Source: Kiritimatiellia bacterium (lineage in GTDB: Bacteria; Verrucomicrobiota; Kiritimatiellia; CAIVKH01). Taken from it: a stretch of DNA of 64,000 nucleotides. Each line of letters starts with the position of its first letter. Position 1 is the stretch's first letter. The notes under the pieces are model-generated. The model saw only the letters and a list, made by a program, of their open reading frames with translations, had not been told where the DNA came from and made no database searches. The stretch spans positions 2,598 to 66,597 of the forward strand of contig DAOLCW010000004.1 of NCBI GenBank assembly GCA_035327665.1, read 5' to 3'. The position numbers and the translations under genes were made by a program. Below are positions 1-37,270 of the stretch, piece by piece.

Positions 1-1097
1 AGGAACCCCGCCGCCGCAATCGTTTCCCCTCGTCGGTCAGCCGGAGCCCGGTACTGAATGAACGCCTCAATCGGAATAATGTAAATCCCCGCCCCCACTC
101 CCGCTACGAACATCAAGATCGCCGTCATCCAAAGCCCGGGCGTTAGAAGACTGAGCAGGATCATCGCCGCCGCCATCAACAAGGCCCCCACCGGAATCGC
201 CCCGAATTCAATATTCCGCCCGGACAGTTTCCCTGCGATCCACGATCCCGCCCCAATCCCGATCGCCGCAAAAAAGAACAGGTACCCCCCCGCCGTTTCC
301 GCAACCTCCAGATGCACCAGCGCATAAGGAATCAAGTTGATCTGCATGAACGCCCCGATCAGCGAAAAGTACGCCGAGGCCAGCGTCGCTAATACCAAAT
401 AGCGGTCGCTCCCAATCGATCGGTAGGTCTTCACCACATCCCGGATCACCCACCAGGAAATCCTCGCCTCCGATCCTGCCGCTGGCGTCCGACCGATGCG
501 CCGGCTCGCCAACAAGCCGCCGCACGCCAACCCCACGCAAACCAGCGCCGCTACCGCAAACATCCGGTTCGAACCATCCACCGACGCCGGGCCGACAAGG
601 ACATCCGTAAGCGTCGGACCCGCCACCGTGCCGAGAATGATCGCCAGGTACGTGAACAAGATCAGAAAACTGTTGGCCTTCGACAACTCATGCGATTGCA
701 CCAGCTCGGGAATCAACCCGTACTTTGAAGGTCCGAAAAAGGCGCTCTGAGCCGACATCAGAAAAAGGATCAGAAATGCCGCATAATAGATCTCCGACCA
801 GAACATGACCGCCGCCGCGATCATCACTCCGACTTCCGCCCACCTCGTCCAAACCGTGATCACTTGCTTGCTATGACGGTCCGCCAGCACCCCCGCAGCC
901 GGAGTGAACAATACAAATGGAAGCGCGAACAGAATCACCCCCGCCGCCGCGATCCGGTCTGCGAATTCCGCTCCCAATCCCCGGATCAGGAAAAAGGTCA
1001 CCAGCAATTTGAAAATGTTGTCGTTCATCGCCCCCAGAAACTGGGTGGCGTTCAGCCATAAAAACGACCGGTTCAACGGTTGGATGGTATCTGGCAT
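1..1097 (-). CDS. MFS transporter, lysophospholipid transporter LplT-like (3' end lies beyond window start; partial)
   Basis: Manual reverse-complement translation from ATG at 1097..1095 gives MPDTIQPLNRSFLWLNATQFLGAMNDNIFKLLVTFFLIRGLGAEFADRIAAAGVILFALPFVLF... with multiple hydrophobic helices running off the window edge; resembles LplT (AQFLSAFGDNALLFATLAL). Absent from ORF track because no stop codon within window. Confidence 0.7.
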   Translation of the reverse strand, partial: MPDTIQPLNRSFLWLNATQFLGAMNDNIFKLLVTFFLIRGLGAEFADRIAAAGVILFALPFVLFTPAAGVLADRHSKQVITVWTRWAEVGVMIAAAVMFWSEIYYAAFLILFLMSAQSAFFGPSKYGLIPELVQSHELSKANSFLILFTYLAIILGTVAGPTLTDVLVGPASVDGSNRMFAVAALVCVGLACGGLLASRRIGRTPAAGSEARISWWVIRDVVKTYRSIGSDRYLVLATLASAYFSLIGAFMQINLIPYALVHLEVAETAGGYLFFFAAIGIGAGSWIAGKLSGRNIEFGAIPVGALLMAAAMILLSLLTPGLWMTAILMFVAGVGAGIYIIPIEAFIQYRAPADRRGETIAAAGF

Positions 1098-1264
1098 GGG
1101 TAACGTGCTCTCCGACTGCACGATAAGGGTTGCCCCGATTGTTGGCAAGGGAATGCCACCCTCTGTCCCACCCGGTCCATTTCCGTTTTTTCCCTTTTCA
1201 AATAGACCTTTCCCCCCTCCTCATTTACGGTATTCATTCTCTAACAACCCCATCCCTGACCTCC

Positions 1265-1864
1265 ATGCCCTCGCTCCATCGTCAATTCAGCCTTTCCGCC
1301 CTCGCCCTCGCAGGCCGACTCCTTCTTGTCACATTGTTCATCCCCCTCGCCACCTCCTGCAAACCCGGCAGGAAGATCACCGACCTCGATCCTGCTCACC
1401 CCGACTTGCTTCAAATCATCATCGAATCCGCCGCGATTTGCCCCGAAGGCTACGAGCTCGTTCAAAATCCCGAAGTGCTCAGAGGCATGGGCATGAAACA
1501 AAATCCCGACTTCATTTCCAACACCTCCGAACTCGAAGCCATGGCCCGCTTCGGAGGCACCAACCCCTTCCTCGCCGTCTACGGCATCAATGGGTCGGTA
1601 CGCATGATGGTCAATGGCGTCTTCTTCCGCGATGCTAACCGGGTCGATGCCTTCGTCCGCGACCAGGAAAAACGGAAACGCCTCCGTATCGCCGTATATG
1701 AAAAACCCCTCGAACACGGAACCTGGGTCTTGATTTGCGCTGTGGATCCCAAGCGGACCTATCCCGAATCCGAGCGACAGGCCATCCAAGCGGCCCTTGA
1801 ACGCAAGGAAAACAACCTGGAAACCCAGTTGCGATTCATCCGCCTCTGGGAAGATCCCTCTTGA
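1265..1864 (+). CDS. hypothetical lipoprotein (signal peptide, lipobox LATSC)
   Basis: Internal ATG at 1265 of track ORF 1130..1864; N-terminus MPSLHRQFSLSALALAGRLLLVTLFIPLATSC is a lipoprotein signal; 4-bp ATGA overlap with next gene. Confidence 0.5.
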   Translation: MPSLHRQFSLSALALAGRLLLVTLFIPLATSCKPGRKITDLDPAHPDLLQIIIESAAICPEGYELVQNPEVLRGMGMKQNPDFISNTSELEAMARFGGTNPFLAVYGINGSVRMMVNGVFFRDANRVDAFVRDQEKRKRLRIAVYEKPLEHGTWVLICAVDPKRTYPESERQAIQAALERKENNLETQLRFIRLWEDPS

Positions 1865-2937
1865 ATGGCATGCGCGGCCCCCCGCTGATTTTTTTCTGCC
1901 TCCTGGCCATCACCGCCGCCGCTTCCGACTCCACCGACCCGCAGGCACTCCATCCTTCCACGAATGCCCTCCCAAAACCTCGCCCTCCCCTCACCCCGCC
2001 CGCTTGGGCCAACGAAGTCCTGAACGAAGCCGGCCGCCAGCAGGAAAGAGCCTCCGGCTGGGTCCGAAGCTCCGCCGAATGGCTCGACCGCTTCTTCTTC
2101 AACCTCTCCGCACCTGTCCATGCGCGCCGCAATCCCACCTTCGACCGCTTCTTCGATGACCGGCGGCTCGACAGTTCCGAGCAAGATACCGTCCTCCGAC
2201 TGTCCCCCGGCATGACCCTGAAAGAAGGCGAAGGCATCGATGCCTCATTCCGCTTCTCCCTTCGCCTCCATTTGCCCCGCTTCGAGGACCAGGTCGACCT
2301 CGTCATCGCAAACTTCGGGCGAGACGATGCCGTGGATGACACCTTCCGCACCGGACGCTTCAACGACTCCCCTCTCGAAGAAGAGACCGACCGCAGCATT
2401 AGCCTACGCACCACCGTTCGCGAAACCCGGCGCCTCCGCCTCTCCTTCAATGCCGGCCTCAATTTCCGTCCCGAACCCGTCCCCAAACTCGCCGCCCGCC
2501 TCCGTCTTGAAGAGCGAGAAGGAATCTACACCCGGCGCCTCAGCCCCAGCCTGATCTGGGACCAGCGCGACGGCTTCGGGCAAAACGCCCGACTCGACTT
2601 CGAGCGGCAGCCTGCCCCGGATTGGAAACAGCGCGCCAGCACCTTCTTCCTCTGGTCGGAAACCAGCGAAGGTGTCCAAGCCTCCGAAACCCTTTCGTTT
2701 ATGCATACCCCCAGCCGGAAAAGAACCCATGCCATCCATCTCGGCGCCACCGGAAAGCTCGAACCCTCCACCCACATGACCGCGTACATCATTCGCTACA
2801 ACCACTATCGCTCCATTTACCGGAATTGGGCCTATCTGGAAATTGAGCCCGGCCTTCAATTTCCCCGCGAACGCGACTGGGAAGCCACCCCATTTATCAA
2901 TATCCAACTCCATATCCTTCTCGGAGCCGTCCGATAA
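1861..2937 (+). CDS. hypothetical secreted protein
   Basis: 358-aa ORF with N-terminal signal-like segment (LIFFCLLAITAAAS); translationally coupled to upstream lipoprotein gene; no recognisable family. Confidence 0.45.
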   Translation: MNGMRGPPLIFFCLLAITAAASDSTDPQALHPSTNALPKPRPPLTPPAWANEVLNEAGRQQERASGWVRSSAEWLDRFFFNLSAPVHARRNPTFDRFFDDRRLDSSEQDTVLRLSPGMTLKEGEGIDASFRFSLRLHLPRFEDQVDLVIANFGRDDAVDDTFRTGRFNDSPLEEETDRSISLRTTVRETRRLRLSFNAGLNFRPEPVPKLAARLRLEEREGIYTRRLSPSLIWDQRDGFGQNARLDFERQPAPDWKQRASTFFLWSETSEGVQASETLSFMHTPSRKRTHAIHLGATGKLEPSTHMTAYIIRYNHYRSIYRNWAYLEIEPGLQFPRERDWEATPFINIQLHILLGAVR

Positions 2938-3024
2938 ACCGGAATCCGACCCCTCCGGCAATCCCGTACTTGCGTTTTCGGCCAACTGACTATACCGTGC
3001 CCACGATTTTACAAGGAAACCACT

Positions 3025-5700
3025 ATGACCGACATGACACCTACGCTAAACGAAGCCGACCGGCTTGAGCACCGTGAATGGCTGGAATCCCTCGACGAAG
3101 TCCATGCCCGAAAAGGATCCGAGCATGTGCGCCACCTGCTCCGTGACCTCCAAATCCAAGCCCAAAAAGCAGGCGTCAAACTTCCCGTAACCTCCGTAAC
3201 CCCTTACACCAATACCATTTCCGTAAACCATCAACCCGCCTATCCCGGCGACCGCGAACTCGAGCGCCGGATCAAGAGCATTCTCCGCTGGAACGCCATG
3301 GCCATGGTTGTGCGGGCCAACAAACTCGACAGCAGCGTAGGCGGACATATCTCCACCTATGCCTCCGCCGCTACCCTCTATGAAGTAGGTTTCAACCACT
3401 TTTTTCGTGGCCGCAGCGAAAACAGCCTCGGCGATTTCGTTTACTTTCAAGGCCATGCTTCTCCCGGCATCTACGCTCGCGCCTTCCTTGAAGGCCGGTT
3501 GAGCCCAAAACACCTCGAAAACTTCCGTCGCGAACTCGCTCCCGGTGGCGGCCTCTCCTCCTATCCGCATCCCTGGCTCATGCCCGACTTCTGGCAGTTT
3601 CCCACTGTCTCCATGGGCCTCGGACCCATCATGGCCATCTACCAGGCCCGGTTCATCCGCTACCTTGAAGATCGCGGCCTCATCCCCCCCAACGACTCCA
3701 AAGTCTTCTGCTTTATGGGCGATGGCGAAACCGATGAGCCGGAATCCCTCGGCGCCATCAGCCTCGCTGCCCGCGAAAAACTCGACAACCTCATCTTTGT
3801 CATCAATTGCAACCTCCAGCGCCTCGACGGCCCCGTCCGCGGCAACGGACAAATCATTCAGGAGCTCGAAGCCGTCTTCCGCGGCACCGGATGGAATGTC
3901 CTCAAGGTCATCTGGGGGGGCGATTGGGATCAACTCCTCGCCCGCGACACCGACGGCATCCTCGTCAAGCGCATGGGCGAAATCGTCGACGGGGAATTCC
4001 AGAAGTACTCCACCGAGTCCGGCGATTACATCCGCAAAAACTTCTTCGGCAAATATCCCGAAACCCTCGAGATGGTCAAACACCTCTCCGACGACCAACT
4101 CCTCAAAATGCGCATGGGCGGACACGACCCCGAAAAAGTTTACGCCGCCTATCGCGCTGCCACCACCAACCAGGGCTCCCCCACCGTCATCCTTGCCCGA
4201 ACCATCAAAGGCTACGGACTCGGCGAAAGCGGCGAAGGCAAAAACATCACCCACCAGCAGAAAAAGCTCAACGAAGAGGAGCTTCGTACCTTCCGCCGCC
4301 GTTTCGACATCCCCATTTCCGAGGATGATATCGGCTCCGCTCCCTTCTACCGGCCCGCCAAGGACAGCCTCGAGATCCAATACCTCCTCGAACGCCGCAA
4401 AGCCCTCGGCGGATTCCTCCCCCGCCGCATCGACACCTCCCCCAAACTCAATGCCCCCAGCGATGCCTTCTTTGAAGAATTCCACAAAGGAACCGAAGGC
4501 CGGGAGGTCTCCACCACCATGGCTTTCGTCCGCATGCTTACCAAACTCCTCAAGGATAAAGAGTTGGGTAAACTTGTGGTCCCGATCGTACCCGACGAAG
4601 CCCGCACCTTCGGCATGGAAGCCCTGTTCCGCCAGTGTGGAATCTATTCCCACGTCGGACAGCTCTACGAACCGGTCGACCGGGAAAGCCTACTCTATTA
4701 CAAGGAAGCCAAGGACGGCCAAATCCTCGAGGAAGGCATCACCGAAGCGGGTGCCTCCTGCTCGTTCATCGCCGCCGGAACCGCCTACGCCAACTACGGC
4801 GTAAGCACCATCCCCTTCTATATCTATTATTCGATGTTCGGCTTCCAGCGGGTTGGCGATCTCTACTGGGCCGCTGGCGACCTCCGCTGCAAAGGCTTCC
4901 TCATCGGGGGCACCGCCGGTCGCACCACCCTTGCCGGTGAAGGTCTCCAGCATCAGGACGGGCATAGCCACCTCCTCGCCTACCCCATCCCCAATTGCTT
5001 GACCTATGACCCCGCCTACGCCTACGAAATGGCAGTCATTATTCAGGACGGCATCAAGCGCATGTACCACGACGGCGAAAGCATCTTCTACTACCTCACC
5101 GTCGGAAATGAAAACTACACCATGCCCGCCATGCCCCAAGGTGCCCGCGAAGGTATTCTCAAAGGCATGTACCTCCTCAGCAAGTCCACCCTCGAAAAAC
5201 CCAAGCACAAAGCCCAACTTTGGGGCAGTGGCGCCATCCTCAATGAAGTCGTCAAGGCCCAAAAGATTCTTGAAGAAACCTACGGCGTGGCCGCTGACGT
5301 GTGGTCCATCACCAGCTACAAGGAACTCCGCCGCGATGCCATGGAAGCCGATCGCTGGAATATGTTCCACCCCGAGGAAAAACCCAAGGTCCCTTACGTC
5401 ACCCAGCAGATGAAGGAAACCGAAGGCGTCATCGTGGCCGCATCCGATTACGTCAAGGCCCTCCCCGACATGCTCTCCCGCTGGCTGCCCCGCCCCATGC
5501 TCTCTCTCGGCACCGAAGGCTACGGCCGTAGCGAAAACCGCGCATCCCTTCGCGATTTCTTCGAAGTCGATGCCCGCTACGTCGTCCTCGGCACCTTGAC
5601 CGCACTCGCCCGCGATGGCCAAATCCGGCCCTCCGTCGTATCCAAAGCGATCAAGGACCTCAACATCGACCCCGATAAACTCAACCCCCTCATTGCTTGA
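3025..5700 (+). CDS. aceE: pyruvate dehydrogenase E1 component, homodimeric type
   Basis: 891-aa product, length and sequence typical of AceE (TPP-binding region, [13 protein letters not shown] motif). Confidence 0.92.
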
Positions 5701-23606: not shown

Positions 23607-24137
23607 TTGCCCGAAATTAACCTCATGACCGCCCTTTCCGCCGCCGATCCATCCAAACCCGTCATCGTCTGGTTCCGCCGCGATCTCCGCCTCGCTGACC
23701 AACCCGCCCTTCACCATGCCCTCGCCACCGGCAAACCCGTAATCCCTCTTTTCATCTGGGCCCCCGAAGAGGAAGCTCCCTGGGCCCCCGGCGCCGCCTC
23801 ATGCTGGTGGCTTCACTACTCCCTCGCCACCCTCTCCCTCGACCTTCAAAAACTCGGCTCCCGCCTCATCCTCCGCCACCAGCCCTCCCTCGACGCCCTC
23901 ATCGAACTCATCGAAGAAACCCGCGCCGACACCCTCGTCTGGAACCGCCTCTATGAACCCGCCATCATCTCCCGCGATGCCGACATCAAGAAAACCCTTC
24001 GCGGACGCGGTGTTCAGGTCACATCCTACTCCTCCCACCTTCTCCACGAACCCTGGACCATCCTCAACCAGCAAGACAAACCCTACCAAGTCTTCACCCC
24101 CTTCTACCGCGCCACCCAAATCCACGGAAACCCCGAC
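23607..24137 (+). pseudogene. DNA photolyase/cryptochrome N-terminal domain only, truncated at poly-C tract
   Basis: VIVWFRRDLRLADQPALHHA...LVWNRLYEPAIISRDADIKKTL is the photolyase alpha/beta domain; downstream of the poly-C no FAD-binding domain motifs exist; the track ORF 23607..25148 reads through low-complexity DNA. Confidence 0.55.
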
Positions 24138-24138
24138 T

Positions 24139-24202
24139 CCCCCCTCCCCCCCCCCCCCCCCCCCCCCCCCCCGCCCCCCCGCCCCCCCCTCCCCCCCCCC
24201 CC
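24139..24202. repeat. poly-C homopolymer tract (27 uninterrupted C at 24146..24172; 64 nt with only 4 non-C)
   Basis: Read directly from sequence. Confidence 0.95.
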
Positions 24203-24264
24203 AACTCCGCCTCCAATGGACACGCCCCCCCCGCCGCGTCCATCCCGCCACCCCCCGCAACTTC

Positions 24265-24401: not shown

Positions 24402-24490
24402 CCACCTTGCCACCTTGCCACCTTGCCACCTTGCCACCTTGCCACCTTGCAACCTTGCCACCTTGCCACCTCCCCACCTCCCCACCCTCT
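24402..24490. repeat. tandem 8-bp repeat (ccaccttg) x about 8 perfect copies, then degenerating copies
   Basis: Read directly from sequence; not CRISPR-like (no spacers). Confidence 0.9.
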
Positions 24491-27635: not shown

Positions 27636-30600
27636 TCAAGCGACAGCCCACTCCGCGCAGAGCAATTCCGCCTGCATCAACACCGTCTTGACCGCTTCTT
27701 CCTGTAAATCCGGAGGATAGCCGTATTTGTTCAGGATGCGCTTCACCATCACCTTGATCTTGGCCCGGGCGCTCTCGCGCAAGGTCCAGTCAATGGTTAC
27801 ACTCTTGCGCACCTGAGTGATAAGTTCCGCCGCGATCACCCGCAATTTGGCGTCGCCCATCGCAACCACTGCGGATTCATTGGCGGCAAGCGCGTCGTAG
27901 AAGGCGACTTCGTCGTCGGTCAGCCCGAGGTCTTCGCCGCGTTTGGTCGCTGTGTCGAGGTCCTTGGCAAGCTTGATCAGCTCTTCGATGACCTGCATCG
28001 TGGAAATGGCCCGGTTGTGGTACGCATTAAGGGTCTTCTTGAGCTTTTCAGAAAAGACCTGGCTTTGTACGAGATTGCGCTTGGAGCGGACCTTGAGTTC
28101 GTCCTTGAGAAGCTTTTCCAGAAGCTCGGCGGCGACGTTCTTATGCTTGAGGCCGCGCACTTCGGCCAGAAATTGGTCGCTGAGGATGCTGATGTCCGGC
28201 TTGGGCAAGCCAGCCGCAGTGAACACGTCGATCACCTCGCCCTCGGTGGTGATGGCCTTGCTCGCGAGCTGGCGGATCGCCGCATCGATCTGCTCCGGCG
28301 TCTTCGTGCTGCCAGCGCTTTGCTTGTTGAGCGCGGCTTGCAGCGCTTGGAAAAAGCTTACGTCGTCGCGGATCTCCGTGGCTTCATCGCTGGCGGCACA
28401 AAGGGCAAAGGCGCGGGAAAGCTCCGTCACCACTTGTACCCAGCGTTTCTTGCCGTCGTCCTGAGCGAGGATATGCTCCTGTCCGGCGGGAAGGAGGGCA
28501 AGGCGCTCGGCGGGTTTGCCGGTGGTCCAATTGCGCCAATCGAACCCGTGCATGATATCGCACGCGATGCCGTGTTTCTCCAGCATCACGGCAATGGCCT
28601 GCCGGGTGTCATAGGTCGGATCGCCTTGCCCGCCACTTTCGGTGTACACCGCTAACGCGCGCTTCAGTTGGTCGGCGAGACCGAGGTAATCCACGACCAA
28701 CCCGCCCGGCTTGTCCCGGAACACCCGGTTGACCCGGGCAATGGCCTGCATCAGTCCGTGCCCCTGCATCGGCTTGTCTGCATACATCGTGTGCAGACAG
28801 GGCGCGTCAAAGCCGGTCAGCCACATATCGCGAACGATCACGATCTTGAACGGGTCCTTGGCATCCTTGAACCGGTTGGCCAACGCGCGCCGTTTGTCCT
28901 TGCTGCGGATATGCGGCTGCCAGTCCGGACCGTCCTCCGCACTGCCGGTCATCACAACCTTGAGTGTTTCCTCCTCCCACCCGGGACGGAGTTTGATCAG
29001 CGCATCGTAAAGATCCACGCAAATGCGGCGGCTCATGCAGACCACCATCGCCTTGCCGTCCATCGCCTCCAGCCGCTTCTCGAAATGCGCCACCAAATCG
29101 GCGGCAATCAGGGCGATGCGCTTCGGATCGCCCACCAACGCCTCCAGCGCCGCCCATTTGGTCTTCAGCTTCTCTTTCCGGGTCAGCTCCTCACCCTCGG
29201 TGATCGCCTCAAACTCCGCATCAAGCTTCGGCAACTCCGCCGCATTCAGGGACAACTTGGAAATCCGGCTCTCGTAATAAATTGGCACTGTCGCCTTGTC
29301 CGCCACCGCCCGCTGGATATCGTAAATGGAAATGTAATCGCCAAACACCGCCCGCGTGTTCGCATCGGTTTTCTCGATGGGCGTGCCGGTAAACCCGATA
29401 AAGGAGGCATGGGGCAAAGCATCCCGCATGTCACGGGCGAGACCATCGATGAGATCATACTGACTGCGATGCGCTTCATCGGCGATCACCACGATATTTC
29501 GCCGCGCGCTCAGCGCGTCATTACGGCCGCCCTTTTCCGCCAGGAACTTCTGAATGGTCGTGAAGACCACGCCACCACTGGCCACGGAAAGTAGATCCCG
29601 CAACTGTTCCCGGCTTTCGGCTTGAACCGGAGTTTGTCCGAGCATGTCATGGCAGCGCTGAAACTGGCCGAAAAGCTGATCATCGAGGTCGTTGCGGTCG
29701 GTCAGAACCACCAGGGTCGGATTCCGCATCGCCGGATGCCGGATCACCCGCGCCGCGTAGAACAGCATGGATAAACTTTTCCCGCTGCCCTGGGTATGCC
29801 ACACCACCCCCGCCCGACGGTCGCCCGGCTTGCCCCCGTGCATCGCCCTCGCCCACGAGGCGCCCATCGGATCGCGAACCGGCTCACCCACCGCGAGGTC
29901 GGCCGCCCGGAGTGTTTCCTGAACCGCAATCGTGACCGCGTGGAATTGATGATAACCCGCGATGATCTTATGGACCTCCCCGGAATCGGGATTCTCCTCA
30001 AACGCGATGAAATGTAGCAGCAGCTTGAGAAAGCGTTCCCGCTCGAAGACACCATAAATCAGGGTTTGGAGTTCGAGCGTGGCCTTGGGTCGCTGCTGCC
30101 CCTCATCCCCGGCCCTTCTCCCGGTGGAAGAAGGGAGATGTGATCCGATTTCCTGTAGAACGGCGTCTGTGTCATTCAAGACACGTTCGTTCGCGAACCG
30201 GACAACCGTCAGTCCCTGCGACCTGAGATAAGCATCCCGTTTGCCGTCGTGCTTCGAGCGTGCCGCTTCGGAATGCGGTTCGCCATCGCATTCCACGACC
30301 AGTTTTGCTTCGTGGCAGAAGAAATCACAGATGTATTCACCGAACTGGTGCTGCCGCCGGAATTTCGCCCCCATCAACTGACGATCACGCAGCAACTCCC
30401 AGAGTGCATCCTCTGCGGGAGTTTGATTCAGTCTCAACGCCCTCGCTTTGTCCGTCATTCCGGCAAAATCGAGCCCTCCGCGATAATGTTCACTCCCTCT
30501 CCCCCTGGGAGAGGGCTGGGGTGAGGGTGGAGGCGAGCCATCCGGCTCCCTCCATACCTTAAACCACTCCTGATTCGCGGTCAGTGACCCGATCCGGGCC

Positions 30601-31196
30601 TGCAAGCCATCGCTGATCACCAGCACCGCGTTGTACTGAAGCATTGACGAAATCTCGGCTTTGTAGGTTCGAATCTGGGCGTAAGCATCCCAGATCGTGG
30701 TGTCCTCATCCGCCGCGTTCTTTAACTCGATCAAACCCAAGGGCAAACCGTTCACGAAGACGATGAGGTCCGGTCGCCGGTTGTGTTGCCCCTCAATCAC
30801 TGTGAATTGGTTCACAACGAACCAGTCGTTCGCCAGCACATCCGTAAAGTCGATCAGCCAGGCCTTGTCGTGTTTGATGCTGCCATCAGGTCGGGCATAC
30901 TCAACATCCACCCCGTCGCGCAGCAACTTGTGAAACGCCCGGTTCGTCTGCACGAGCGACGGAGTCGCCAACCGCAAAACTTTCCGCAACGCCTCCTCCC
31001 GCGCCTCCCCGGGAACATCTGGATTCAAACGCCCGATCGCCTCACGCAGACGCCCCACCAAAACCACGTCCCCAAATCCATTCCGCTCCGAGGACGCTTC
31101 ACCCGGCGCAAGTTGCGGCCCGTGCCCGGTCGCATAGCCAAGATCCCCGAACCATTCGAGGGCGGCGTCTTCGACGATGGATTCGTTGAGGGTCAT
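27636..31196 (-). CDS. hsdR: type I restriction enzyme R subunit HsdR carrying an in-frame DUF559 (Vsr-like endonuclease) domain insertion
   Basis: N-terminal PD-(D/E)xK ([12 protein letters not shown]), helicase Walker A (TQGSGKS), DEAH (IADEAH), C-terminal HsdR domain; insertion ...[30 protein letters not shown]...[15 protein letters not shown] is DUF559-like. Confidence 0.9.
30098..30140. repeat. REP/MITE-like palindromic element, copy d (in hsdR)
   Basis: gcccctcatccccggcccttctcccggtggaagaaggg; imperfect inverted repeat cccttctccc/ggaagaaggg. Confidence 0.6.
30493..30535. repeat. REP/MITE-like palindromic element, copy c (in hsdR, opposite orientation)
   Basis: ccctctccccctgggagagggctggggtgagggtgg; palindrome ccctctcccc/gggagaggg. 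Confidence 0.6.
31157..31190. repeat. 34-bp direct repeat, copy 1 (hsdR start region)
   Basis: cgagggcggcgtcttcgacgatggattcgttgag identical to 32358..32391. Confidence 0.9.
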
Positions 31197-32260
31197 GGTT
31201 GGTCGCGCTCCGGCGGCAATTCTTTGAGCAAACGATCAAAGTCCGACTCGAACAACCGGTCCTGCACGATGCGGTATTTCTCGAATTCGCTCTCCGCGTG
31301 TGCTTGGGCGATTTCGGCGGTGACTTTGCCGGCATCGTGCAGGATTTCGCGGTCAGTCGCGGCAATGAAGCGGTTGAGGCGGGTTTCCCAGTCCTGCATG
31401 GTCATGGGAATCTCACGCAGCGCCATGTCCTCGGCAATATCCAAGTAGGCGGAAACGAGCCGCTGGAGCTGCTCCATTTCGTTTTCCGTCAGGTAGTTCT
31501 TTGCCACAACCACATCGAACTTCTGGATTTTACCTTTGGGCGCGTCCTTCCAGGTGGTCAGGCCCATGCGGTCTTTCGCTGCATCGGCGCGAGCGACGAT
31601 GACCTCGGCTGCCGTCTGGCCGTGGATGGCCCAGTGGAGCTTGTTCTGTACGGTGGCGAAGAAACGCTGCGTGGCGATGGCAGTGACGTCGTAATCGATG
31701 GAGGTCGCGTAAATATCCGTGATCTTCTGGTAGAACTTGCGCTCGCTTAGACGTATTTCGCGGATGCGTTGGAGTTGTTCCTCGAAGTATTTTTTGCCGA
31801 GGATCGAGCCGTCGTTCTTGAGACGCTCGTCATCCATCGCGTAGCCCTTGATGGTGAAGGATTCGATGATGCCGGTGGCCCACTTGCGGAACTGCACGGC
31901 ACGCTCCGAGTTCACCTTGTAGCCGACCGCGATGATGGCGGAGAGATTGTAGTGCTGGGTGTCGTAGGTTTTGCCGTCGGCGGCAGTTATTCGAAAATTT
32001 CGAATAACTGAACCGGCCTCCAGTTCGGCGTCGTCGAAGACCTTTTTGAGGTGGTAATTGATCGTGTGCGTCTCCACGTCGTAGAGCAGCCCCATCATCT
32101 TCTGGCTGAGCCAGACATTCTCATCGGAGTAAACCGCCTCGACGCCACCCTGCCCGCTGGCCGCCACAAAGGTCAGGTATTCCGCCGCCGAGGAGCGGAC
32201 GAGCGAGACTTCGTCCTTCTTCTTGGCGCGACCGCCCGGGGTGGGTTTCTTTTTACTCAC
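31193..32260 (-). CDS. rhuM: RhuM family virulence-like protein (common type I RM accessory gene)
   Basis: [15 protein letters not shown]...[43 protein letters not shown] matches RhuM; GTG start at 32260; stop overlaps hsdR start. Confidence 0.8.
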
Positions 32261-32317
32261 GGGTTTGTCCTCCTCGCGATTTGAACTCTTCGAGATTGCC
32301 GAATGGTTGCCCGCGAC

Positions 32318-32348
32318 TCCTCGGAAAGGGCCGGGGTGAGGGATGCCA
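32318..32348. repeat. partial REP/MITE-like element, copy e
   Basis: gggccggggtgaggg is the reverse complement of the ccctcaccccggccc arm of copies a and d. Confidence 0.45.
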
Positions 32349-32397
32349 CAGGCATTACGAGGGCGGCGTCTTCGACGATGGATTCGTTGAGTTTCAT
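32341..32397 (-). pseudogene. hsdR 5' remnant (first ~13 codons [13 protein letters not shown]) displaced by cassette insertion
   Basis: Compare hsdR N-terminus [16 protein letters not shown]; the remnant diverges after EDAAL into a REP-like element. Confidence 0.5.
32358..32391. repeat. 34-bp direct repeat, copy 2 (hsdR 5' remnant)
   Basis: Identical to 31157..31190; encodes [13 protein letters not shown] on minus strand. Confidence 0.9.
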
Positions 32398-33230
32398 TTG
32401 TCTTTCAACCACACCAGCGCTTCGGGGTGCGCCTTCCACGCCATGCCCAGAACATCGGCAAAACACACTGCCTCCTCCTTGCTGCCTGAAGCATAGAAGG
32501 AAGGCAGGATTCTCGGCAGACGTTTTCCCAGCAAATACGCCTCAACGTGGGCATTTTGCTTACGGGCGGTATTGATGGCCTTGGCTGCGGCTTTGAAGTC
32601 ATCCCGCAGCCACAAATCCAGAACCTTGCCCCAGGCAAAAACCATACTCAGCTTGGCTTCGTTGTATTGTTTGAACAGGCGCGCGGTTTGTTGAAGCCGC
32701 TTGAGAGCGAGCAGGGTCGGCAATAGATAATAGCGCAATCCCTGATTGTCGTTGGGATTCAACTCCAGAAGGGCCGTCCATTCCGCTGCAGCCTCTTCAA
32801 GATTGCCGGACCGGCGCAACGCTTCGGCCAAATCCGCCCGCGCCCGCATGTAGGGACGTGTTTCCATGAATCCCCAAAAGCTGCCTTTCAGATGCAAAAA
32901 CACCTCCGGCCCCAACTGGTGGGCAGCCAGCTCTACCAGCTTGCGCAGGACGTCAATGCGCTGCCTGATTGAAAGACCAAGATCGTGAAGCAAGACCAGC
33001 CAGGCATCAACATGGGTCGGATCCAGTTCCAAGGCATTTTCCAACATTGCGTTCTGATCCTCATTCGAACGCGCCTCCATCGCGTCGTAATACAGTTCAC
33101 GCGATGCCTCGCTCAACGGACGCGCCGGTTCGCCCAACGCCCGATCCAGCGTTTTGATGATCCCGGCAAAACTGTACCGGTTCCCCCCGTTGCCAAGCCC
33201 CCCCTCAATCACACGTAGTTGCATTATCAA
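32394..33230 (-). CDS. hypothetical all-helical (TPR-like) protein embedded in type I RM locus
   Basis: 278-aa ORF, good codon usage, no family recognised; stop overlaps ATG of hsdR remnant (ATGA). Confidence 0.5.
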   Translation of the reverse strand: MIMQLRVIEGGLGNGGNRYSFAGIIKTLDRALGEPARPLSEASRELYYDAMEARSNEDQNAMLENALELDPTHVDAWLVLLHDLGLSIRQRIDVLRKLVELAAHQLGPEVFLHLKGSFWGFMETRPYMRARADLAEALRRSGNLEEAAAEWTALLELNPNDNQGLRYYLLPTLLALKRLQQTARLFKQYNEAKLSMVFAWGKVLDLWLRDDFKAAAKAINTARKQNAHVEAYLLGKRLPRILPSFYASGSKEEAVCFADVLGMAWKAHPEALVWLKDK

Positions 33231-33351
33231 GACTCCTCATTTGCGGATAATCGATTAGCGATCAGCGTGGCAGAACTCATAACCATCTTTGTCCCTTCAG
33301 ACTTCAGGGAAGATTAGTACAGATTGCGGTGTTCGACCATTAAGAAGGTAC

Positions 33352-34773
33352 TCATGCCGGAACCTCCTTTTCGACCTCCGCCACACTCAACTCCCCGCTC
33401 AGCAGCTTCGGCAACAACGTGTCGCGCAGGGTGGCGAGGGTGCGGGATTGGTGGAGGTTGGCATGGATGCGGTCGAGCATTGGTTGAATGATCCGCGTGA
33501 AGGCGGCGGCGATGGGTTTCGACGGCACGGCGACCTTGAAGGAACTGATGTCGCTCCAGTTCGTTCGCGGCATCTTGGTTCCAGTGGATGCGAGATCGGT
33601 GAATTGAATCAGTTCGTCGCTGCTTGCGTGGCCGAGGAGGAACCCGAACCACTCGGGGCTTTTCGGTGCGAGGACGAGGATGTCGGTGGAGCATACGCCA
33701 TCGAACGGGGCGACGCCGACTTTGTGGAAGTAAGGCCGCAGCTTGCCGAAGAGGATTTCGCCTTTATTGAACGCGGACTTGCCGCTCGCCACGTCGGCGG
33801 AGTCGTCCCAATCGCCGAGCGCGATGCAGCGACGCGGCATGTGTTCCAAGGCGATGTAGGGCGTGTTCGGTGCGATGTCGCCGGGCTGGACGCCGCGCCG
33901 CGAGTTCGTGCCGATGTCACCGACTGTTCCCACCGTCCATCCTTTGGGAATGTAACCGAGGGGTGAGTCTTCCAAGTGCTCGGGAAAGAGGGCGGCGATG
34001 GCGGGGTCTAGCGCGAAGCGCCCCTCTTCCCCGCCCCTTCTCCCACTGGGAGAAGGGTGGCCGGCAGGCCGGGTTGAGGGTTGATTCCGATCCATGTTCC
34101 GCCGAACTGGATCGAAATCAATAAACCAGCTCTGGAACAGCGCCCGCGCCATCCCCTCCAGCGTCTCGTTCATCCGCCGGTTCAACTCGATATTGTCATC
34201 GAGCGTGCCGAGTATGTGGGCGATGCGTTTTTGGATGGGGAGGGGTGGGAGTGTGAGCGGTGTGTTGCGAAGAATACCAAGGTTAGTGTGTGGAACGCCG
34301 GTTTGGATCGCATTCTGTCGAATGTAATCCTGCTGCTCCGCGCTGGTGAAGACGTAGTAGAGAAACACGGTATCTGCCTTCTCGGCATCGACCGTGAGCT
34401 TCATCTGGCTCTGAGAAATCAGGTATCTGTCCACGCCCTTCTTTGGCACTATGGCGACTTGGCCAAGCGTGCCGCGTTGAGTGAAAACTATGTCTCCGGG
34501 TTTCGCGCAGTTTGAGGAAAGAGATTCGGCCTTCTCTGGCGTGACATAAGCGAACTCGCCATCGACCCAACGGCCATGGCCCATGTTCGTTCCGCGAATG
34601 ACGGGGACTCCCGCAGGCACATAGTCTTTTGAGACCAAGTCAGAGCCGAACGGACCGCCGACGAGCGCATTTCGAGTCTTTACGGCGAGTTCGCCGACGG
34701 TGCAGTCAATGAACGCTTCAGTCGCCATACCCCAGCCCCCTTCCTCCTGCGCACTGCTCGCTATAGCGAGCAT
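33352..34773 (-). CDS. hsdS: type I restriction-modification specificity subunit HsdS (with in-frame palindromic-element insertion in central conserved region)
   Basis: Two TRD halves, central conserved LPPLPIQKRIAHILGTLDDNIELNRRMNETLE and C-terminal LPKLLSGEL repeats; extra segment NQPSTRPAGHPSPSGRRGGEEGRF coincides with element copy b. Confidence 0.82.
   Translation of the reverse strand: MLAIASSAQEEGGWGMATEAFIDCTVGELAVKTRNALVGGPFGSDLVSKDYVPAGVPVIRGTNMGHGRWVDGEFAYVTPEKAESLSSNCAKPGDIVFTQRGTLGQVAIVPKKGVDRYLISQSQMKLTVDAEKADTVFLYYVFTSAEQQDYIRQNAIQTGVPHTNLGILRNTPLTLPPLPIQKRIAHILGTLDDNIELNRRMNETLEGMARALFQSWFIDFDPVRRNMDRNQPSTRPAGHPSPSGRRGGEEGRFALDPAIAALFPEHLEDSPLGYIPKGWTVGTVGDIGTNSRRGVQPGDIAPNTPYIALEHMPRRCIALGDWDDSADVASGKSAFNKGEILFGKLRPYFHKVGVAPFDGVCSTDILVLAPKSPEWFGFLLGHASSDELIQFTDLASTGTKMPRTNWSDISSFKVAVPSKPIAAAFTRIIQPMLDRIHANLHQSRTLATLRDTLLPKLLSGELSVAEVEKEVPA
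34017..34085. repeat. REP/MITE-like palindromic element, copy b (in hsdS)
   Basis: agcgcccctcttccccgccccttctcccactgggagaagggtggccggcaggccggg; palindrome cccttctccc/gggagaaggg. Confidence 0.6.
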
Positions 34774-34929
34774 GCCGGTTTGCTTTGCTAGGTTGCTCCA
34801 GCCTTACATCCCCGGCGAGCCGGGTCGCAGGGGTCGCCTGTGTCCCATGGGACCGGTGCGACCCGGGGGACGGTTTGGGGCTGGGTGAGTCAGGGGGCGA
34901 CAGGGTCTTGAGTGAACTTCCGGGGGATT

Positions 34930-35586
34930 TCACGGGGGGCTTCTCCGGCTTTGCTTGGCCCGGGCTTGAAGGCGGGCCCGGGTCATGCGTTCGCGGAGAC
35001 CGCCTTCCTTCAAAAAATCCTGTTCGAGGCGACGGAGCTGCCGGTCGATCAGGTAATTGGCCTGGTTGATGAGGCAGATCAGGATATTGGCCACGGTTTC
35101 ACCGGGCCGGGTCTCGATAAACTCCCGGAAATGATCATACTTCAGATCATCGCGGGCGCTGAGCTTGCGCACATACAGCGCTTCCTTGCTGTTCTTGTCC
35201 CACGGGGTCAAATCCTGGTGAATCAGAAAATCCTCATAATCACCCAGCAACTCTTCCAAGCTCCCCCTCGCCACCGACGTCAGCTTAATCTCCGATTCTT
35301 TCGATGTCCCCGAAACCTGGCTCGCCTCGGCAATATTTTTGTTCCCGCTCCGCGCCGCCTGCACCATCTGGTCATGCGTCCGCGACCGTCGGCTGATAAA
35401 CCTGTCGCAGAACACCTTCGTCGCCCGGTAAATCACCTCCGTTTTCCGGTATCCGTGCAGATTGGCATACCCCCCATGCGGCGGGATAAACCCTTCTTCC
35501 GGCTCATCCCGGCTCCCGCGCGGCGATCGCCGCGCCCGATCCGTCCCCCGCGTCCCCCGGGTCCCATTCTCCCCGGAATCAGCCAT
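34930..35586 (-). CDS. four-helix-bundle protein (TIGR02436-like; frequent type I RM locus passenger)
   Basis: [12 protein letters not shown] and [16 protein letters not shown] match the family; overlaps hsdM stop by 8 bp. Confidence 0.65.
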
Positions 35587-37270
35587 ACCCCAACCCCTTC
35601 AAATTTTCCCGGATCGCTGCCTCCAGCCTCGCCGATTCCGCAAACTGTCCATCCAGCTCGGTCACCAGCCGCTTCATCTTCACCTCAAACGGCTCCCCGT
35701 CGTCCTCGACCGCTTCCGCTCCGACATACCGGCCCGGAGTAAGCACATAGCCATGCGCGGCAATTTCGGCGGTGGTGGCGGACTTGCAAAAACCCGGCGT
35801 ATCGGAATAGGACAAATGGGACGCGTGGGACCGATCCCCACGCCAGGCATGGTAGGTCGCTGTGATCTTTTCCAGATCGGCATCGGTCAGTTCTCGGTGG
35901 ACCCGGTCGATCAGCGTGCCGAGTTTGCGGGCGTCGATGAATAGCGTTTGCTTCCTTCGGTCGCGCAAACGCCCCTCACCCCCAGCCCCTCTCCCACTGG
36001 GAGAGAGTTTCCCGCCTGATTTGTCGCGGGAAATAAACCAGAGGCAGACGGGAATCTGCGTGCTGTAAAAAAGCTGTCCCGGCAAGGCGACCATGCAGTC
36101 CACGAGGTCGGCTTCGATCAGAGCTTTGCGGATCTCGCCTTCGCCGGACTGGTTCGAGGACATGCTCCCGTTGGCGAGAACGAAGCCGGCCATGCCCTGC
36201 GGCGCGAGGTGGTGGATGAAGTGTTGGACCCAGGCAAAGTTCGCGTTGCCCTTGGGCGGGACGCCATACAGCCAGCGCACGTCGTCGTCCTTGCGGAACC
36301 AGTCGGAATCGTTGAACGGCGGATTGGCGAGCACATAGTCGGCGCGGAGGTCGGGGTGGAGATCGCGGCGGAAGGTGTCGGCGTGTTCGGGACCGAAGTC
36401 GGCCTCGATCCCGCGGATGGCGAGGTTCATGATCGCGAGGCGCCGCGTGGTGGCATTGCTCTCCTGCCCGTAAATGCTAATGTCCCCCACCCGCCCACCG
36501 TGGGACTCCACAAACTTCTCCGACTGCACGAACATCCCGCCCGACCCGCAGCAGGGGTCATAGATGCGTCCCTTGTAAGGCGCCAGCATTTCCACCAGGC
36601 AGCGCACCACGCAACTTGGGGTATAGAACTGTCCCCCGTTCTTGCCTTCGGCCGAAGCGAAGCGGGTCAGAAAATACTCATAGACCCGGCCGAGCAAATC
36701 CACCGAACGGTGCGAGGGCAACGGAGCGGTTTCCAGGACCCCGGCCGCCTCACCGGCCCCGAGGTCGGGTGGGAGGTCGGCCTTGGCCACATCCACGCCG
36801 TCCGAGGACGGAACAAGGGTGATGGTCCCGATCAAATCAATCAACTCTCCCAAGCGATGCTTATCCAGGGCCGGACGCGCGTAATCTTTGGGGAGGACGC
36901 CCTTGAGGCGCGGATTGTCCCGTTCAATGGCAACCATGGCGTCGTCGACGATTTTGCCGATGGTCGGCTGCTTGGCGCTGTTCTGGAGGTATGACCACCG
37001 GGCGGCGGGCGGCACCCAAAACACATTCTCCGCCTTGTATTCGTCCTGATCTTCCGGATCAGCCCCCTCGTAGTCGCCCTTCCCCAACAGCAGTTTAGCC
37101 CGATGCTCCTCGAACGAATCGGAGATGTACTTCAGGAAGATCAACCCCAGCACCACATGCTTGTACTCCGCCGCGTCCATATTGTTGCGGAGCTTGTCAG
37201 CGGCAAGCCAAAGCTTGGCCTCGAAACCGATGGTAGCCGTCGATTTTTCAGTTTTGCGTTTAGCGGCCAT
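35579..37270 (-). CDS. hsdM: type I restriction-modification DNA methyltransferase subunit HsdM (with in-frame palindromic-element insertion)
   Basis: HsdM N-domain ([13 protein letters not shown]), NPPFN catalytic motif, AdoMet motif (DPCCGSGGM); extra [18 protein letters not shown] before [10 protein letters not shown] coincides with element copy a. Confidence 0.9.
35968..36012. repeat. REP/MITE-like palindromic element, copy a (in hsdM)
   Basis: aacgcccctcacccccagcccctctcccactgggagagagtttcccgcc; palindrome cctctccc/gggagag. Confidence 0.6.

Follow-up and report, generated by a model that had tools for sequence, protein, structure and literature searches.

Vsr is a mismatch-nicking repair enzyme and the partner of C5-cytosine methylases. 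A Vsr-like fold is common to the EDxHD homing endonucleases, such as I-Bth0305I (PMC3239194, PMC2677866), and to the cassette that is described here in a type I restriction gene. Both lie inside insertions in conserved DNA-metabolism genes, and both are polymorphic for presence. The EDxHD enzymes are either free-standing or housed in a group I intron or (split) intein, and possess an extra N-terminal DNA-binding region. The cassette, on the other hand, contains no splicing element, its nuclease stays in the host protein, it is bounded by terminal inverted repeats (TIRs), and its hosts are restriction-modification (R-M) genes.

Homing-endonuclease inteins are likewise in frame in conserved genes with an endonuclease inside, and exist as filled, degenerate and empty alleles. 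Their Hint domain and splice-junction residues are absent from the cassette, the removal of which is not expected.

Rickettsia palindromic elements, reportedly described by Ogata and co-workers in 2000 and mentioned in PMC1779305, differ from the cassette in that they are not known to encode an enzyme or to be bound to one class of host genes.

The REPIN/RAYT system (PMC3116915, PMC3337134) resembles the cassette in its nuclease-type gene bracketed by inverted hairpin repeats, in its enzyme-less repeat singlets and doublets, and in its long-term persistence under purifying selection. However, RAYT is a HUH tyrosine transposase and the REPs are extragenic, whereas the cassette encodes a PD-(D/E)xK nuclease and the clade studied here lies within coding sequences. 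The gene bracketed here is a DUF559 gene instead of a Y1 HUH transposase flanked by REPs, and the arrangement alone is alike.

The free-standing DUF559 protein NGO0050 of N. gonorrhoeae (PDB 3HRL) belongs to the same family as the cassette nuclease. The cassette clade differs from such free-standing proteins by an N-terminal HYRGG extension, the loss of start and stop codons, and its position as an internal domain. The CoCoNuT type III-B systems (PMC11090510; Pfam MTES_1575) also combine a Vsr-like nuclease with an ATP-driven DNA/RNA motor in a restriction-type system, but there the Vsr-like fusions are terminal, without reported repeats or polymorphic insertion sites.

No description of such a cassette was found in the literature searched. 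We interpreted positions 30093-30536 of the window (the whole 64-kb stretch of DNA analysed) as a copy of a mobile endonuclease-domain cassette that is translated within its host protein and lives in R-M genes, with a probability of about 0.6.

The host hsdR gene and its locus

The genes hsdM, hsdS and hsdR, with their typical domains, lie on the same strand in one locus (27636-37270), as in a type I R-M system. Between them are rhuM, a TPR ORF and a four-helix-bundle ORF.

27636-31196, minus strand: hsdR, restriction subunit of type I with 1186 aa and about 133 kDa, gene that hosts the cassette (ORF and Pfam domains)
29460-29486, minus strand: DEAH box of HsdR (IADEAHRSQ), present
30720-30779, minus strand: native nuclease motif of HsdR, present
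32310-32397, minus strand: 13-codon stub of the hsdR start, then a degenerate repeat (SLTPALSEES), upstream of rhuM
33352-34773, minus strand: hsdS, specificity subunit (Pfam Methylase_S)
35579-37270, minus strand: hsdM, methylase subunit (Pfam HsdM_N and N6_Mtase)

The Pfam architecture of HsdR was HSDR_N (aa 3-211), DUF559 (PF04480, aa 248-353), SWI2_SNF2 (aa 416-674) and then T1RH-like_C, with further matches to ResIII and T1R_D3-like. D143, E157 and K159 as well as the DEAH box were invariant in the HsdR alignment. The canonical PD-(D/E)xK region that the initial annotation saw in HsdR is indeed present, with both its native nuclease motif and the DEAH box intact.

The stub upstream of rhuM duplicates 40 nt of the hsdR 5' end at 95% identity. 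The repeat pattern was matched inside the stub region, at 32322-32342, with 2 mismatches, and an element at the corresponding N-terminal place was found in other HsdR proteins.

Boundaries, repeats and reading frame of the cassette

30093-30536, minus strand: whole cassette (left repeat, DUF559 core, right repeat), HsdR aa 221-368, from codon alignment with empty orthologs
30489-30536, minus strand: left TIR, outer block CCCTCACCCC and hairpin CCCTCTCCC-AGG-GGGAGAGGG, encoding 16 residues
30135-30488, minus strand: conserved cassette core, including the HYRGG extension
30138-30455, minus strand: DUF559 / Vsr-like PD-(D/E)xK endonuclease domain, Pfam match at aa 248-353 (E 7.6e-35)
30093-30137, minus strand: right TIR, hairpin and outer block GGGGATGAGGGG, encoding 15 residues (nhmmer E 2.6e-8)

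The cassette is 444 bases long, is in frame with hsdR, and lacks start and stop codons of its own. The interval from EWFKVWR to LEL measured 157 residues in the window HsdR versus 12 in insert-free orthologs. The initial annotation had proposed about 145 extra residues in a segment at 30098-30535 (438 nt, 146 codons), and the ortholog alignment that it called for confirmed this excess and the insertion boundaries. The cassette is thus an insertion, in the sense orientation and in frame, into the hsdR linker between the nuclease and motor domains. With this orientation and frame the ribosome must read through it, which gives HsdR an additional domain.

At its two ends the cassette has the same GC-rich element of about 40 nt in inverted orientation, each copy with a 9-bp stem and a 3-nt loop. 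After reverse-complementing, 34 of 43 aligned columns were identical. This bracketing by oppositely oriented palindromes, with the hsdR sense frame kept open, had been described from the outset, and it is the terminal-inverted-repeat arrangement of a TIR transposon or MITE. The inner hairpin reads the same on both strands, and the two hairpins therefore also stand to each other as direct repeats.

A small nhmmer model found three window copies with E values between 2.6e-8 and 2.6e-6, and the fourth, the left arm of the cassette, with 1.5e-3. The 21-mer repeat consensus (at most 3 mismatches) had 2 matches in the window versus 0.02 expected from shuffles. DUF559 occurred once in the 64 kb.

The same element was seen in hsdS and hsdM, as had been claimed.

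34018-34059, minus strand: solo repeat HPSPSGRRGGEEGR in the central conserved region of hsdS (nhmmer E 1.3e-7)
35969-36009, minus strand: solo repeat in hsdM, site M-2 (nhmmer E 2.6e-6)
36713-36814, minus strand: 34-aa extra segment in hsdM, site M-1

Full cassettes were found at the position of the hsdS solo in five proteins (P0224, P0228, P0232, P0238 and P0253), and at site M-2 in HsdM of other phyla (L056, L065 and L074). Site M-1 holds a full cassette in P0121, P0214, P0125 and L018-L023 and a repeat pair in L006, while L001 and L003 have an HsdM without the segment. The window segment at M-1 is probably an eroded repeat pair, which we hold with moderate confidence, its DNA resemblance to the pair in L006 being weak.

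As in inteins, the insertion is in frame in a conserved gene and polymorphic for presence, and the two repeats could pair in mRNA. Removal of the cassette in the manner of an intein or intron, yielding a mature HsdR without it, is nevertheless hardly credible. Pfam revealed neither a Hint domain nor any intein family in HsdR, the junctions (DGS/PPPSP and EGQQ/RPKA) are not intein-like, and the flanks are about 15 low-complexity residues in varying frames. To our knowledge, no ligation mechanism exists for such a stem. Homing endonuclease genes are usually, though not obligatorily, carried by an intein or self-splicing intron; the cassette is translated through.

The DUF559 nuclease domain

The PF04480 profile matched the insert with 119.5 bits (cut-off 20.6; E 7.6e-35) over profile positions 4-107 of 109, and a weak match to Pfam MTES_1575 was also obtained. 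Sequence comparison with solved structures returned PDB 3HRL (E 5e-28) and 3R3P, which is I-Bth0305I (E 1.5e-3). The AlphaFold model of the insert had a pLDDT above 90 in the core, and Foldseek aligned it with 3HRL (TM 0.81), 3R3P (TM 0.74) and Vsr proper, 1VSR (TM 0.51). Profile, sequence match to solved structures and predicted fold all upheld the identification of the insert as DUF559.

The model predicted that the DUF559 domain folds independently, flanked by two low-confidence Pro/Ser/Gly linkers that are encoded by the repeats. Modelling of the full-length HsdR (18-sequence alignment) gave a mean pLDDT of 45, too poor to place the insert on the enzyme.

Core residues D55, E66, D68 and H72 were conserved in 81/81 copies, including the window copy. 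By analogy with Vsr and I-Bth0305I, they would be the catalytic residues. Among cassette copies the nuclease had a dN/dS of 0.06-0.13 at a dS of 0.8-1.8, a constraint about equal to that on the host helicase motifs. The nuclease is thus kept intact by strong purifying selection. From this selection and the conserved putative catalytic residues we infer a second nuclease activity in HsdR. No biochemical activity of a DUF559 protein was reported in the literature searched.

Insertion sites and host range

Orthologous HsdR proteins (80-88% identical) contained no insert, a cassette at one of three positions, or repeats only (solos). The ortholog set comprised 120 HsdR proteins that were 73-100% identical to the window HsdR. 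Full, solo and empty alleles numbered 6, 6 and 86 at site A, 15, 11 and 79 at site B, and 27, 3 and 82 at site C. P0044 and P0049 are among the proteins with an empty site B. At all three sites, therefore, the insertion is present in some orthologs and absent from others at the same site, as in homing endonuclease genes. Codon alignments showed an identical cassette architecture at the three sites. Every ortholog bearing the segment also had the repeats and many lacked the segment, and no case of a segment without flanking repeats was seen.

A search of 185,579 species-representative genomes was followed by examination of the 80 top-ranking relatives of the cassette, with 4-10 kb of DNA read around each match. 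In 74 of them the cassette lay inside an R-M ORF (HsdR, HsdM or a methylase-specificity fusion), in the sense orientation and without a frame break. These best genome matches placed the same cassette at about 12 positions in R-M genes and in at least 8 phyla. The other six copies were outside R-M ORFs, and the adjoining DNA contained no R-M sequence on either strand.

Additional repeats in the 80 loci were concentrated in the host R-M ORF, which held 36 of 43 with 37% of the sequence (P = 3e-10). Four HsdS ORFs were among the additional element-bearing ORFs that were scanned.

The cassette query matched about 24,700 cluster representatives in a separate protein search of 1.84 billion. Among the best 150 matches were 73 long proteins, dominated by HsdS hosts: Methylase_S in 38, N6_Mtase in 12, Eco57I in 7, MmeI in 6 and HSDR_N in 5. 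Carriers included a Limisphaerales genome (OZ260084.1) and two cultured strains, Haloferula luteola YC6886 (NZ_JACHFD01) and Luteolibacter algae KCTC 22040 (NZ_JBHUIT01). Plasmid and viral collections, queried with the cassette core, yielded only distant free-standing DUF559 genes (at most 54% identity) and none of the R-M cassette clade.

The suggestion in the initial annotation of a cassette invading a restriction enzyme was strengthened by finding the same cassette elsewhere in hsdR and in hsdM, hsdS and other R-M genes. It is extremely improbable that DUF559 was an original part of HsdR that was lost from the orthologs, with the repeats adjacent by chance. Copies at the same site are indeed old and roughly co-diverge with the host gene. 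However, the same domain with its repeats occurs at three places in HsdR and also in HsdM, HsdS and other methylases, and the empty alleles are the majority. This multi-site distribution already contradicts an ancestral domain, and the repeats also bracket free-standing DUF559 genes.

Orientation likewise bears on whether the repeats flip the cassette and so make restriction phase-variable. The segment 30098-30535 is open only in the hsdR sense frame, and stop codons in all three antisense frames would truncate HsdR upon inversion. 'DUF559 domain-containing protein' was also 14-fold enriched among predicted programmed-inversion targets beside R-M methylases (PMC9881135), which would favor a switch, although this enrichment may merely reflect the inverted repeats. 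All 74 cassettes inside R-M ORFs were sense and none was antisense, the six outside copies had no R-M sequence beside them, and no consistently neighboring recombinase gene was found. A switch is therefore very unlikely.

Repeats, solos and the wider palindrome family

The left repeat was read in three frames (34, 29 and 9 copies), even inside one site lineage. The hairpin arms co-varied, and in 107 of 162 unique copies the stem was perfectly paired over 9 bp or more. These observations indicated that the repeats are conserved as DNA and not as peptide. In a cyanobacterial copy the repeats were retained despite containing a stop codon there. Folding energies of single-repeat hairpins were unexceptional versus shuffles of equally GC-rich sequence (z -0.5 to -2.3); what supports the hairpin is that its arms co-vary.

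Solos, such as those in the window hsdS and hsdM, sit exactly at positions that hold full cassettes in other genes. They were found in 15 of 47 proteins with an intact copy versus 3 of 73 without (P = 5e-5), and 83 of 87 loci had exactly one intact copy. The retention of an intact copy beside solos suggests that the host is selected for a single functional nuclease.

Restriction of the palindromic repeat to R-M genes was also considered. It held for the window and 87 R-M loci, but was overturned by an unbiased pattern scan of metagenome contigs, in which 141 of 147 sampled copies of the palindrome had no DUF559 nearby and most were also distant from R-M genes. The palindromic element is a member of a widespread REP-like family and is not special to the hsd locus or to R-M genes, and its spread need not depend on the DUF559 nuclease.

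Free-standing DUF559 genes had an inverted-repeat bracket of the same kind in 4 of 5 cultured-strain records checked (Deinococcus, Azospirillum, Sphingomonas and Picosynechococcus), and also in metagenome copies. The Deinococcus repeats were 56 nt long and 95% complementary. These relatives are TIR-bounded units between unrelated genes, one of them between two transhydrogenase subunit genes.

We tentatively propose, at clearly less than even odds, that DUF559 proteins supply the nuclease of a novel class of mobile element in bacteria. The element would be a unit of about 450 bp, with one PD-(D/E)xK nuclease gene and two hairpin-bearing TIRs, and its enzyme-less repeats would be one among the common GC-rich REP-like palindromes. 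One lineage would have become an R-M 'domain transposon'. Having shed both start and stop codon, it would employ its repeats, which are open in all frames, as linkers and would multiply in frame within R-M genes with no splicing.

Mobility and age

The site-C cassette of one locus (L025) shared 86% identity with a site-A cassette but just 66% with the remaining site-C cassettes. Another site-C cassette (L040) was nearest to the site-D lineage. By these sequence comparisons, the cassette has moved from one site to another on a few occasions or more.

Most cassettes clustered by site. Identity within sites was 0.75-0.87 in 5 of 9 site classes and 0.62-0.71 in the others, including site C, while identity between sites was 0.54-0.72. 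It follows that colonization of each site was rare, and most spread may be inheritance with the host gene. Synonymous sites between same-site copies were near saturation.

No recent insertion was found, a near-identical filled/empty pair being absent from the aligned HsdR orthologs. The junctions are too diverged from the empty alleles for a target-site duplication or an exact insertion point to be read, and no duplication was obvious in the Deinococcus copy. Host residues adjoining the site were almost wholly different in occupied and empty alleles. This difference would fit co-conversion and equally one old insertion. The cassette codes for DUF559 only and not for a known transposase (DDE, HUH, serine or tyrosine).

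These ages give weight to a rival reading, in which the cassette was an old mobile arrival that no longer moves by itself and is now selected in the host as an R-M domain. It would be a second cutter for the complex, or the cutter for methylase-specificity complexes, with the polymorphism arising from recombination of hsd alleles and loss. Consistent with this, same-site copies are old, their constraint equals that of the helicase motifs, nearly all loci hold a single intact copy, extra copies decay to solos, and solos are rare where no intact copy remains. The hosts are almost exclusively DNA-targeting R-M proteins, and Vsr-like effector domains are fused to helicases in other defense systems (PMC11090510).

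Against such recruitment, HsdR already has an intact nuclease motif, the domain is missing from most close orthologs, and about 12 different loops in three different subunits would be an odd route to a functional fusion. Conservation of the repeats as DNA in three frames points to a DNA-level function, and the free-standing relatives amid unrelated genes are like selfish elements. We consider a recruited, immobile nuclease a serious alternative, but an unlikely one.

Under the preferred reading, a mobile cassette, the encoded nuclease would cut DNA, and recombinational repair would copy the cassette into empty alleles. It would spread in this homing-like manner among R-M genes, which often meet by horizontal transfer, and occasional ectopic copying would open new insertion sites. 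A solo would result when slippage or recombination between the hairpins removes the nuclease.

The same nuclease may add to restriction as well, which would explain the usual single intact copy per invaded system. Homing, a benefit to restriction, or both may account for its persistence.

Significance

If true, this would be the first biological role for DUF559, a very large family of unknown function, and would add a non-splicing, in-frame lifestyle to the habits of selfish endonucleases. R-M genes, which are themselves selfish and highly mobile, would then host parasites of their own or recruited modules. The two cultured carriers make the question directly testable.

R-M enzymes with a second nuclease in the R, M or S subunit may cut DNA unlike textbook type I enzymes. 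Annotation pipelines label such genes plain 'HsdR', or break them up into pieces called 'DUF559 domain-containing protein'. The repeats serve as natural linkers with which many loops of large enzymes accept an insertion, and this is of use in protein engineering.

The DUF559 insert in HsdR

ORF calls and Pfam searches identified a type I restriction-modification (R-M) locus on the minus strand of the window, with the following features.

27636-31196, minus strand: hsdR
31193-32260, minus strand: rhuM
32394-33230, minus strand: TPR ORF
33352-34773, minus strand: hsdS
34018-34059, minus strand: single repeat copy in hsdS
34930-35586, minus strand: four-helix-bundle ORF (218 aa) between hsdS and hsdM
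35579-37270, minus strand: hsdM
35969-36009, minus strand: single repeat copy in hsdM

The HsdR product, which matched a protein from a Kiritimatiellia metagenome-assembled genome at every residue, had the usual HSDR_N, SWI2/SNF2 and C-terminal domains in Pfam. A DUF559 match (residues 248-353, E 7.6e-35) was placed between the nuclease and motor domains. The interval from EWFKVWR to LEL was 157 residues long, versus 12 in insert-free orthologs. These results bore out the initial annotation, which had described about 145 extra residues of DUF559 type inserted in frame: the segment 30098-30535 (438 nt, 146 codons) was open in the frame of hsdR alone. No second DUF559 was found within the 64-kb window.

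Each end of the insert consisted, from outside to inside, of an outer block (CCCTCAYCCC) and a 9-10-bp hairpin, CCCTCTCCC-NNN-GGGAGAGGG. The two ends were inverted copies of one element, as had been proposed, with 34 of 43 aligned columns identical after reverse-complementing, and the element recurred once each in hsdS and hsdM. Copies in the window far exceeded the number in shuffled sequence. Every copy in the window and the first seven related loci was within an hsd gene or a short way upstream of hsdR.

Insertion sites in HsdR

The insert was examined in the HsdR proteins most similar to the window's (73-100% identity), which came from Verrucomicrobiota, Kiritimatiellia and other groups. 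Proteins without the insert were 1036-1089 aa long. Three insertion sites were found, and the window's own was site B. At each site, some proteins carried the cassette (full), some just both repeats (solo) and others no insert (empty).

Allele states at the three sites among the best 120 HsdR matches
Site A, after DGVPVE, near residue 100: full 6, solo 6, empty 86
Site B, after FKVWR: full 15, solo 11, empty 79
Site C, after FTTIQKF, inside the motor domain: full 27, solo 3, empty 82

The existence of all three forms in the ortholog alignment indicated insertion; that DUF559 is an ancestral domain of HsdR was unlikely. Combinations of states were many in these 120 matches, some of them with full or solo states at two sites or at all three, and one protein had two cassettes.

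The cassettes at sites A, B and C shared one architecture: a left repeat (approximately PSPQPSPxGRGSE), a conserved HYRGGFDF start, the DUF559 domain and a right repeat. In codon alignments they were always sense and in frame, and an inversion switch was considered unlikely. In PMC9881135, a 'DUF559 domain-containing protein' is listed without comment among predicted inversion targets; inverted repeats of this kind could be behind that listing.

Site C of the window hsdR (about 29487-29540) contained no cassette. The residues past it were nearer to those of occupied alleles (GRNEALSERR) than of empty ones (EAMPELSARQ), and by this resemblance may be a trace of a cleanly lost cassette.

Constraint on the repeats and the nuclease

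The repeat element was open in every frame. The left repeat was read as PSPxPSPxGRG in 34 copies, PxPxPLPxGEG in 29 and LTPxLSxGER in 9, and the frame varied even inside one site lineage. The hairpin arms co-varied (CCCTTCTCCC in 41 copies, CCCCTCTCCC in 32 and CCCTCTCCC in 24, each paired with its exact complement), and 107 of 162 unique repeat copies had a perfect stem of at least 9 bp. The reading in three frames and the co-varying arms therefore placed the constraint on the DNA (or RNA), not on the peptide.

The nuclease itself was conserved. Inside site lineages dN/dS was 0.06-0.13, with synonymous sites near saturation (dS 0.8-1.8), and the core residues D55, E66, D68 and H72 were kept in 81/81 cassette copies. 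This constraint was similar to that on the host helicase motifs. In a structure model of the cassette alone, the core had pLDDT above 90 and the repeat-encoded ends about 55, as would be expected if the ends were flexible linkers. The nearest solved structures were the DUF559 protein 3HRL and the homing endonuclease I-Bth0305I.

Host range of the cassette

A word-index search found HsdM and HsdR fragments among the cassette's nearest relatives. When 1.84 billion cluster representatives were searched without filters, 24,675 matched. Among the best 150, 73 were at least 300 aa long, and their Pfam domains were Methylase_S (38), N6_Mtase (12), Eco57I (7), MmeI_Mtase (6), HSDR_N (5), HsdM_N (4) and N6_N4_Mtase (2).

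One genome from each of 185,579 species was scanned with patterns drawn from the nuclease alone, which yielded 215 confirmed copies. In the best 80 of these, 74 cassettes were internal to R-M ORFs, sense and in frame.

Hosts among the best 80 of 215 confirmed copies
HsdR family 1: site A 9, site B 11, site C 19
Second HsdR family: 10
Acidobacterial HsdR: 3
HsdM, two sites: 9 and 3
Another HsdM family: 7
Methylase-specificity fusions: 3

Verrucomicrobiota predominated among the host taxa of these 80, which also included Kiritimatiellia, Lentisphaerae, Planctomycetes, Omnitrophota, Acidobacteriota, Desulfobacterota, Gammaproteobacteria, Bacteroidota and Hydrogenedentota. The remaining 6 of the 80 were short free-standing genes, with no R-M sequence beside them on either strand.

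The cassette position in HsdS, in the central conserved region (WFIDFDP ... LFPD), was the exact place of the solo in the window hsdS. Likewise, the cassette in HsdM of other phyla occupied the exact place of the hsdM solo. The window hsdM also had 34 extra residues at a third site known to take the cassette, and these probably represent an eroded pair of repeats. The suggestion of a domain-carrying mini-cassette in a restriction enzyme was thus extended, by the same repeat-bounded cassette, to other hsdR sites, HsdM and HsdS. The in-frame cassette of the HYRGG clade (nucleases with an N-terminal HYRGG extension) is specific to R-M genes.

The palindrome and free-standing DUF559 genes

At the 80 genome loci, the host ORF accounted for 37% of the sequence and contained 36 of 43 extra repeats (P = 3e-10). 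Four HsdS ORFs were among the extra element-bearing ORFs scanned, and three or fewer extra repeats were elsewhere.

A scan of metagenome contigs with the palindrome pattern alone gave at least 147 copies on at least 120 contigs. Among the matches listed, 141 of 147 had neither DUF559 nor R-M genes nearby, five abutted free-standing DUF559 genes and one was an HsdS solo. This ruled out confinement of the palindrome itself to R-M genes. The palindrome is therefore a widespread REP-like repeat.

A similar inverted-repeat bracket was present at free-standing DUF559 genes in four of five plasmid or chromid records of cultured strains. The repeats were 56 nt long and 95% complementary in Deinococcus proteolyticus, the same CCCCTCACCCC...CCCCTCTCCC element in Azospirillum lipoferum, 27 nt long on a Sphingomonas parapaucimobilis plasmid (locus 521-968) and an AT-richer variant in Picosynechococcus PCC 7002. 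The fifth, Neisseria gonorrhoeae, had a weak inverted repeat alone (24 nt, 71% complementary). The arrangement resembles that of RAYT genes flanked by REPs (PMC3116915), but the enzyme differs.

The Sphingomonas gene was flanked by the alpha-subunit gene and its next neighbor in a cluster for a proton-translocating transhydrogenase, a kind of place that would suit a selfish insertion and not a member of an operon. On a plasmid of Synechocystis sp. B12 (CP101712, locus 828-3318), a DUF559 unit carrying the cassette's repeats split a DUF1156/N6_N4 DNA methylase gene into three annotated CDS; stop codons were present, one supplied by the left repeat. On pAQ6 of Picosynechococcus PCC 7002, a DUF559 gene was just upstream of an intact DUF1156 gene.

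Neighboring sequences

A 40-nt copy of the hsdR start (95% identical) was found at 32310-32397, 1.2 kb upstream of the real start and before rhuM; it encoded a 13-residue stub followed by a degenerate palindromic element (SLTPALSEES). This suggests a recombination event that inserted rhuM into the 5' end of some hsdR allele bearing an N-terminal element. A related locus, L007, had a similar 109-aa HSDR_N stub ahead of an inserted gene.

The four-helix-bundle ORF had a weak 23S_rRNA_IVP match, below cut-off (E 1e-5), and was bracketed by a different 33-nt inverted repeat of GGGAC-type units (34847-34879 and 35535-35567, 82% complementary). This region (34847-35586) may be another small repeat-bounded unit.

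The space from hsdM/hsdS to hsdR held different cargo in each of five related loci (L001, L003, L005, L006 and L007): Fic, Gp49/HTH, CD-NTase with Cap15 (CBASS-like), RhuM, HipA with HTH, a deaminase/HATPase_c_4 protein, AAA/SMC-like and SLFN/AlbA genes. No palindromic element was found in these cargo genes.

Plus-strand GC skew was -0.15 to -0.39 across 1-28000, then dropped away at the 3' end of hsdR and was about 0 from there to the window end (28000-64000). Genes in 1-28000 were on both strands (PDH E1 plus; MatE, Mur ligase and histidine kinase minus). The step could come from acquisition of a very large region, from a chimeric assembly with its join at the R-M locus, or from unusual replication-strand bias. 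A 64-nt C run (87% matches) and 9.8 copies of the 8-mer CCACCTTG, at 24129-24211 and 24402-24479, lay within a C-rich stretch near a histidine-kinase gene and could be slippage-prone.

Movement and loss of the cassette

Cassette sequences clustered mostly by insertion site. Identity within sites was 0.75-0.87 in five of nine site classes and 0.62-0.71 in the others; between sites it was 0.54-0.72. Sites are therefore colonized rarely. Site C, where cassettes were heterogeneous overall, gave clear exceptions to this grouping. One was 86% identical to a site A cassette and 66% to other site C ones, and another fell in the lineage of the second HsdR family.

Flanking host residues were almost wholly different between occupied and empty alleles (at site B, WRE(P/I)D versus WRTIDG). 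Two histories would account for this equally: co-conversion during homing, or a single old insertion with later recombination among alleles.

Because the inner hairpin is identical to its reverse complement, a cassette's two hairpins also form direct repeats. If slippage occurred between them, the nuclease would be deleted and outer-hairpin-outer would remain; in sequence the short solos look like this product. Solos occurred mainly in proteins keeping an intact copy (15/47 versus 3/73, P = 5e-5). Removal like that of an intein or intron was unlikely.

We interpreted the segment, with high confidence, as an inserted, repeat-bounded nuclease cassette, formerly or currently mobile and translated within HsdR. 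Cutting by its own nuclease, followed by break repair, would copy it into empty alleles and at times into new sites; we gave this a probability of about 0.6. The main rival, in which the domain has become just an additional nuclease that selection keeps in the R-M complex, was judged possible though the weaker candidate. It is favored by the age of the copies and by the presence of exactly one intact copy at 83 of 87 loci. Self-driven copying and such selection are compatible.

Full-text literature searches on DUF559, COG2852 and related terms found no published description of such a cassette. Each part has known counterparts (Vsr-like homing endonucleases, palindromic elements inserted in frame, and enzymes associated with REPs); what appears to be new is how they are combined, together with the confinement to R-M genes. 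We propose that R-M genes would be a good niche for the cassette because they are exchanged so often.
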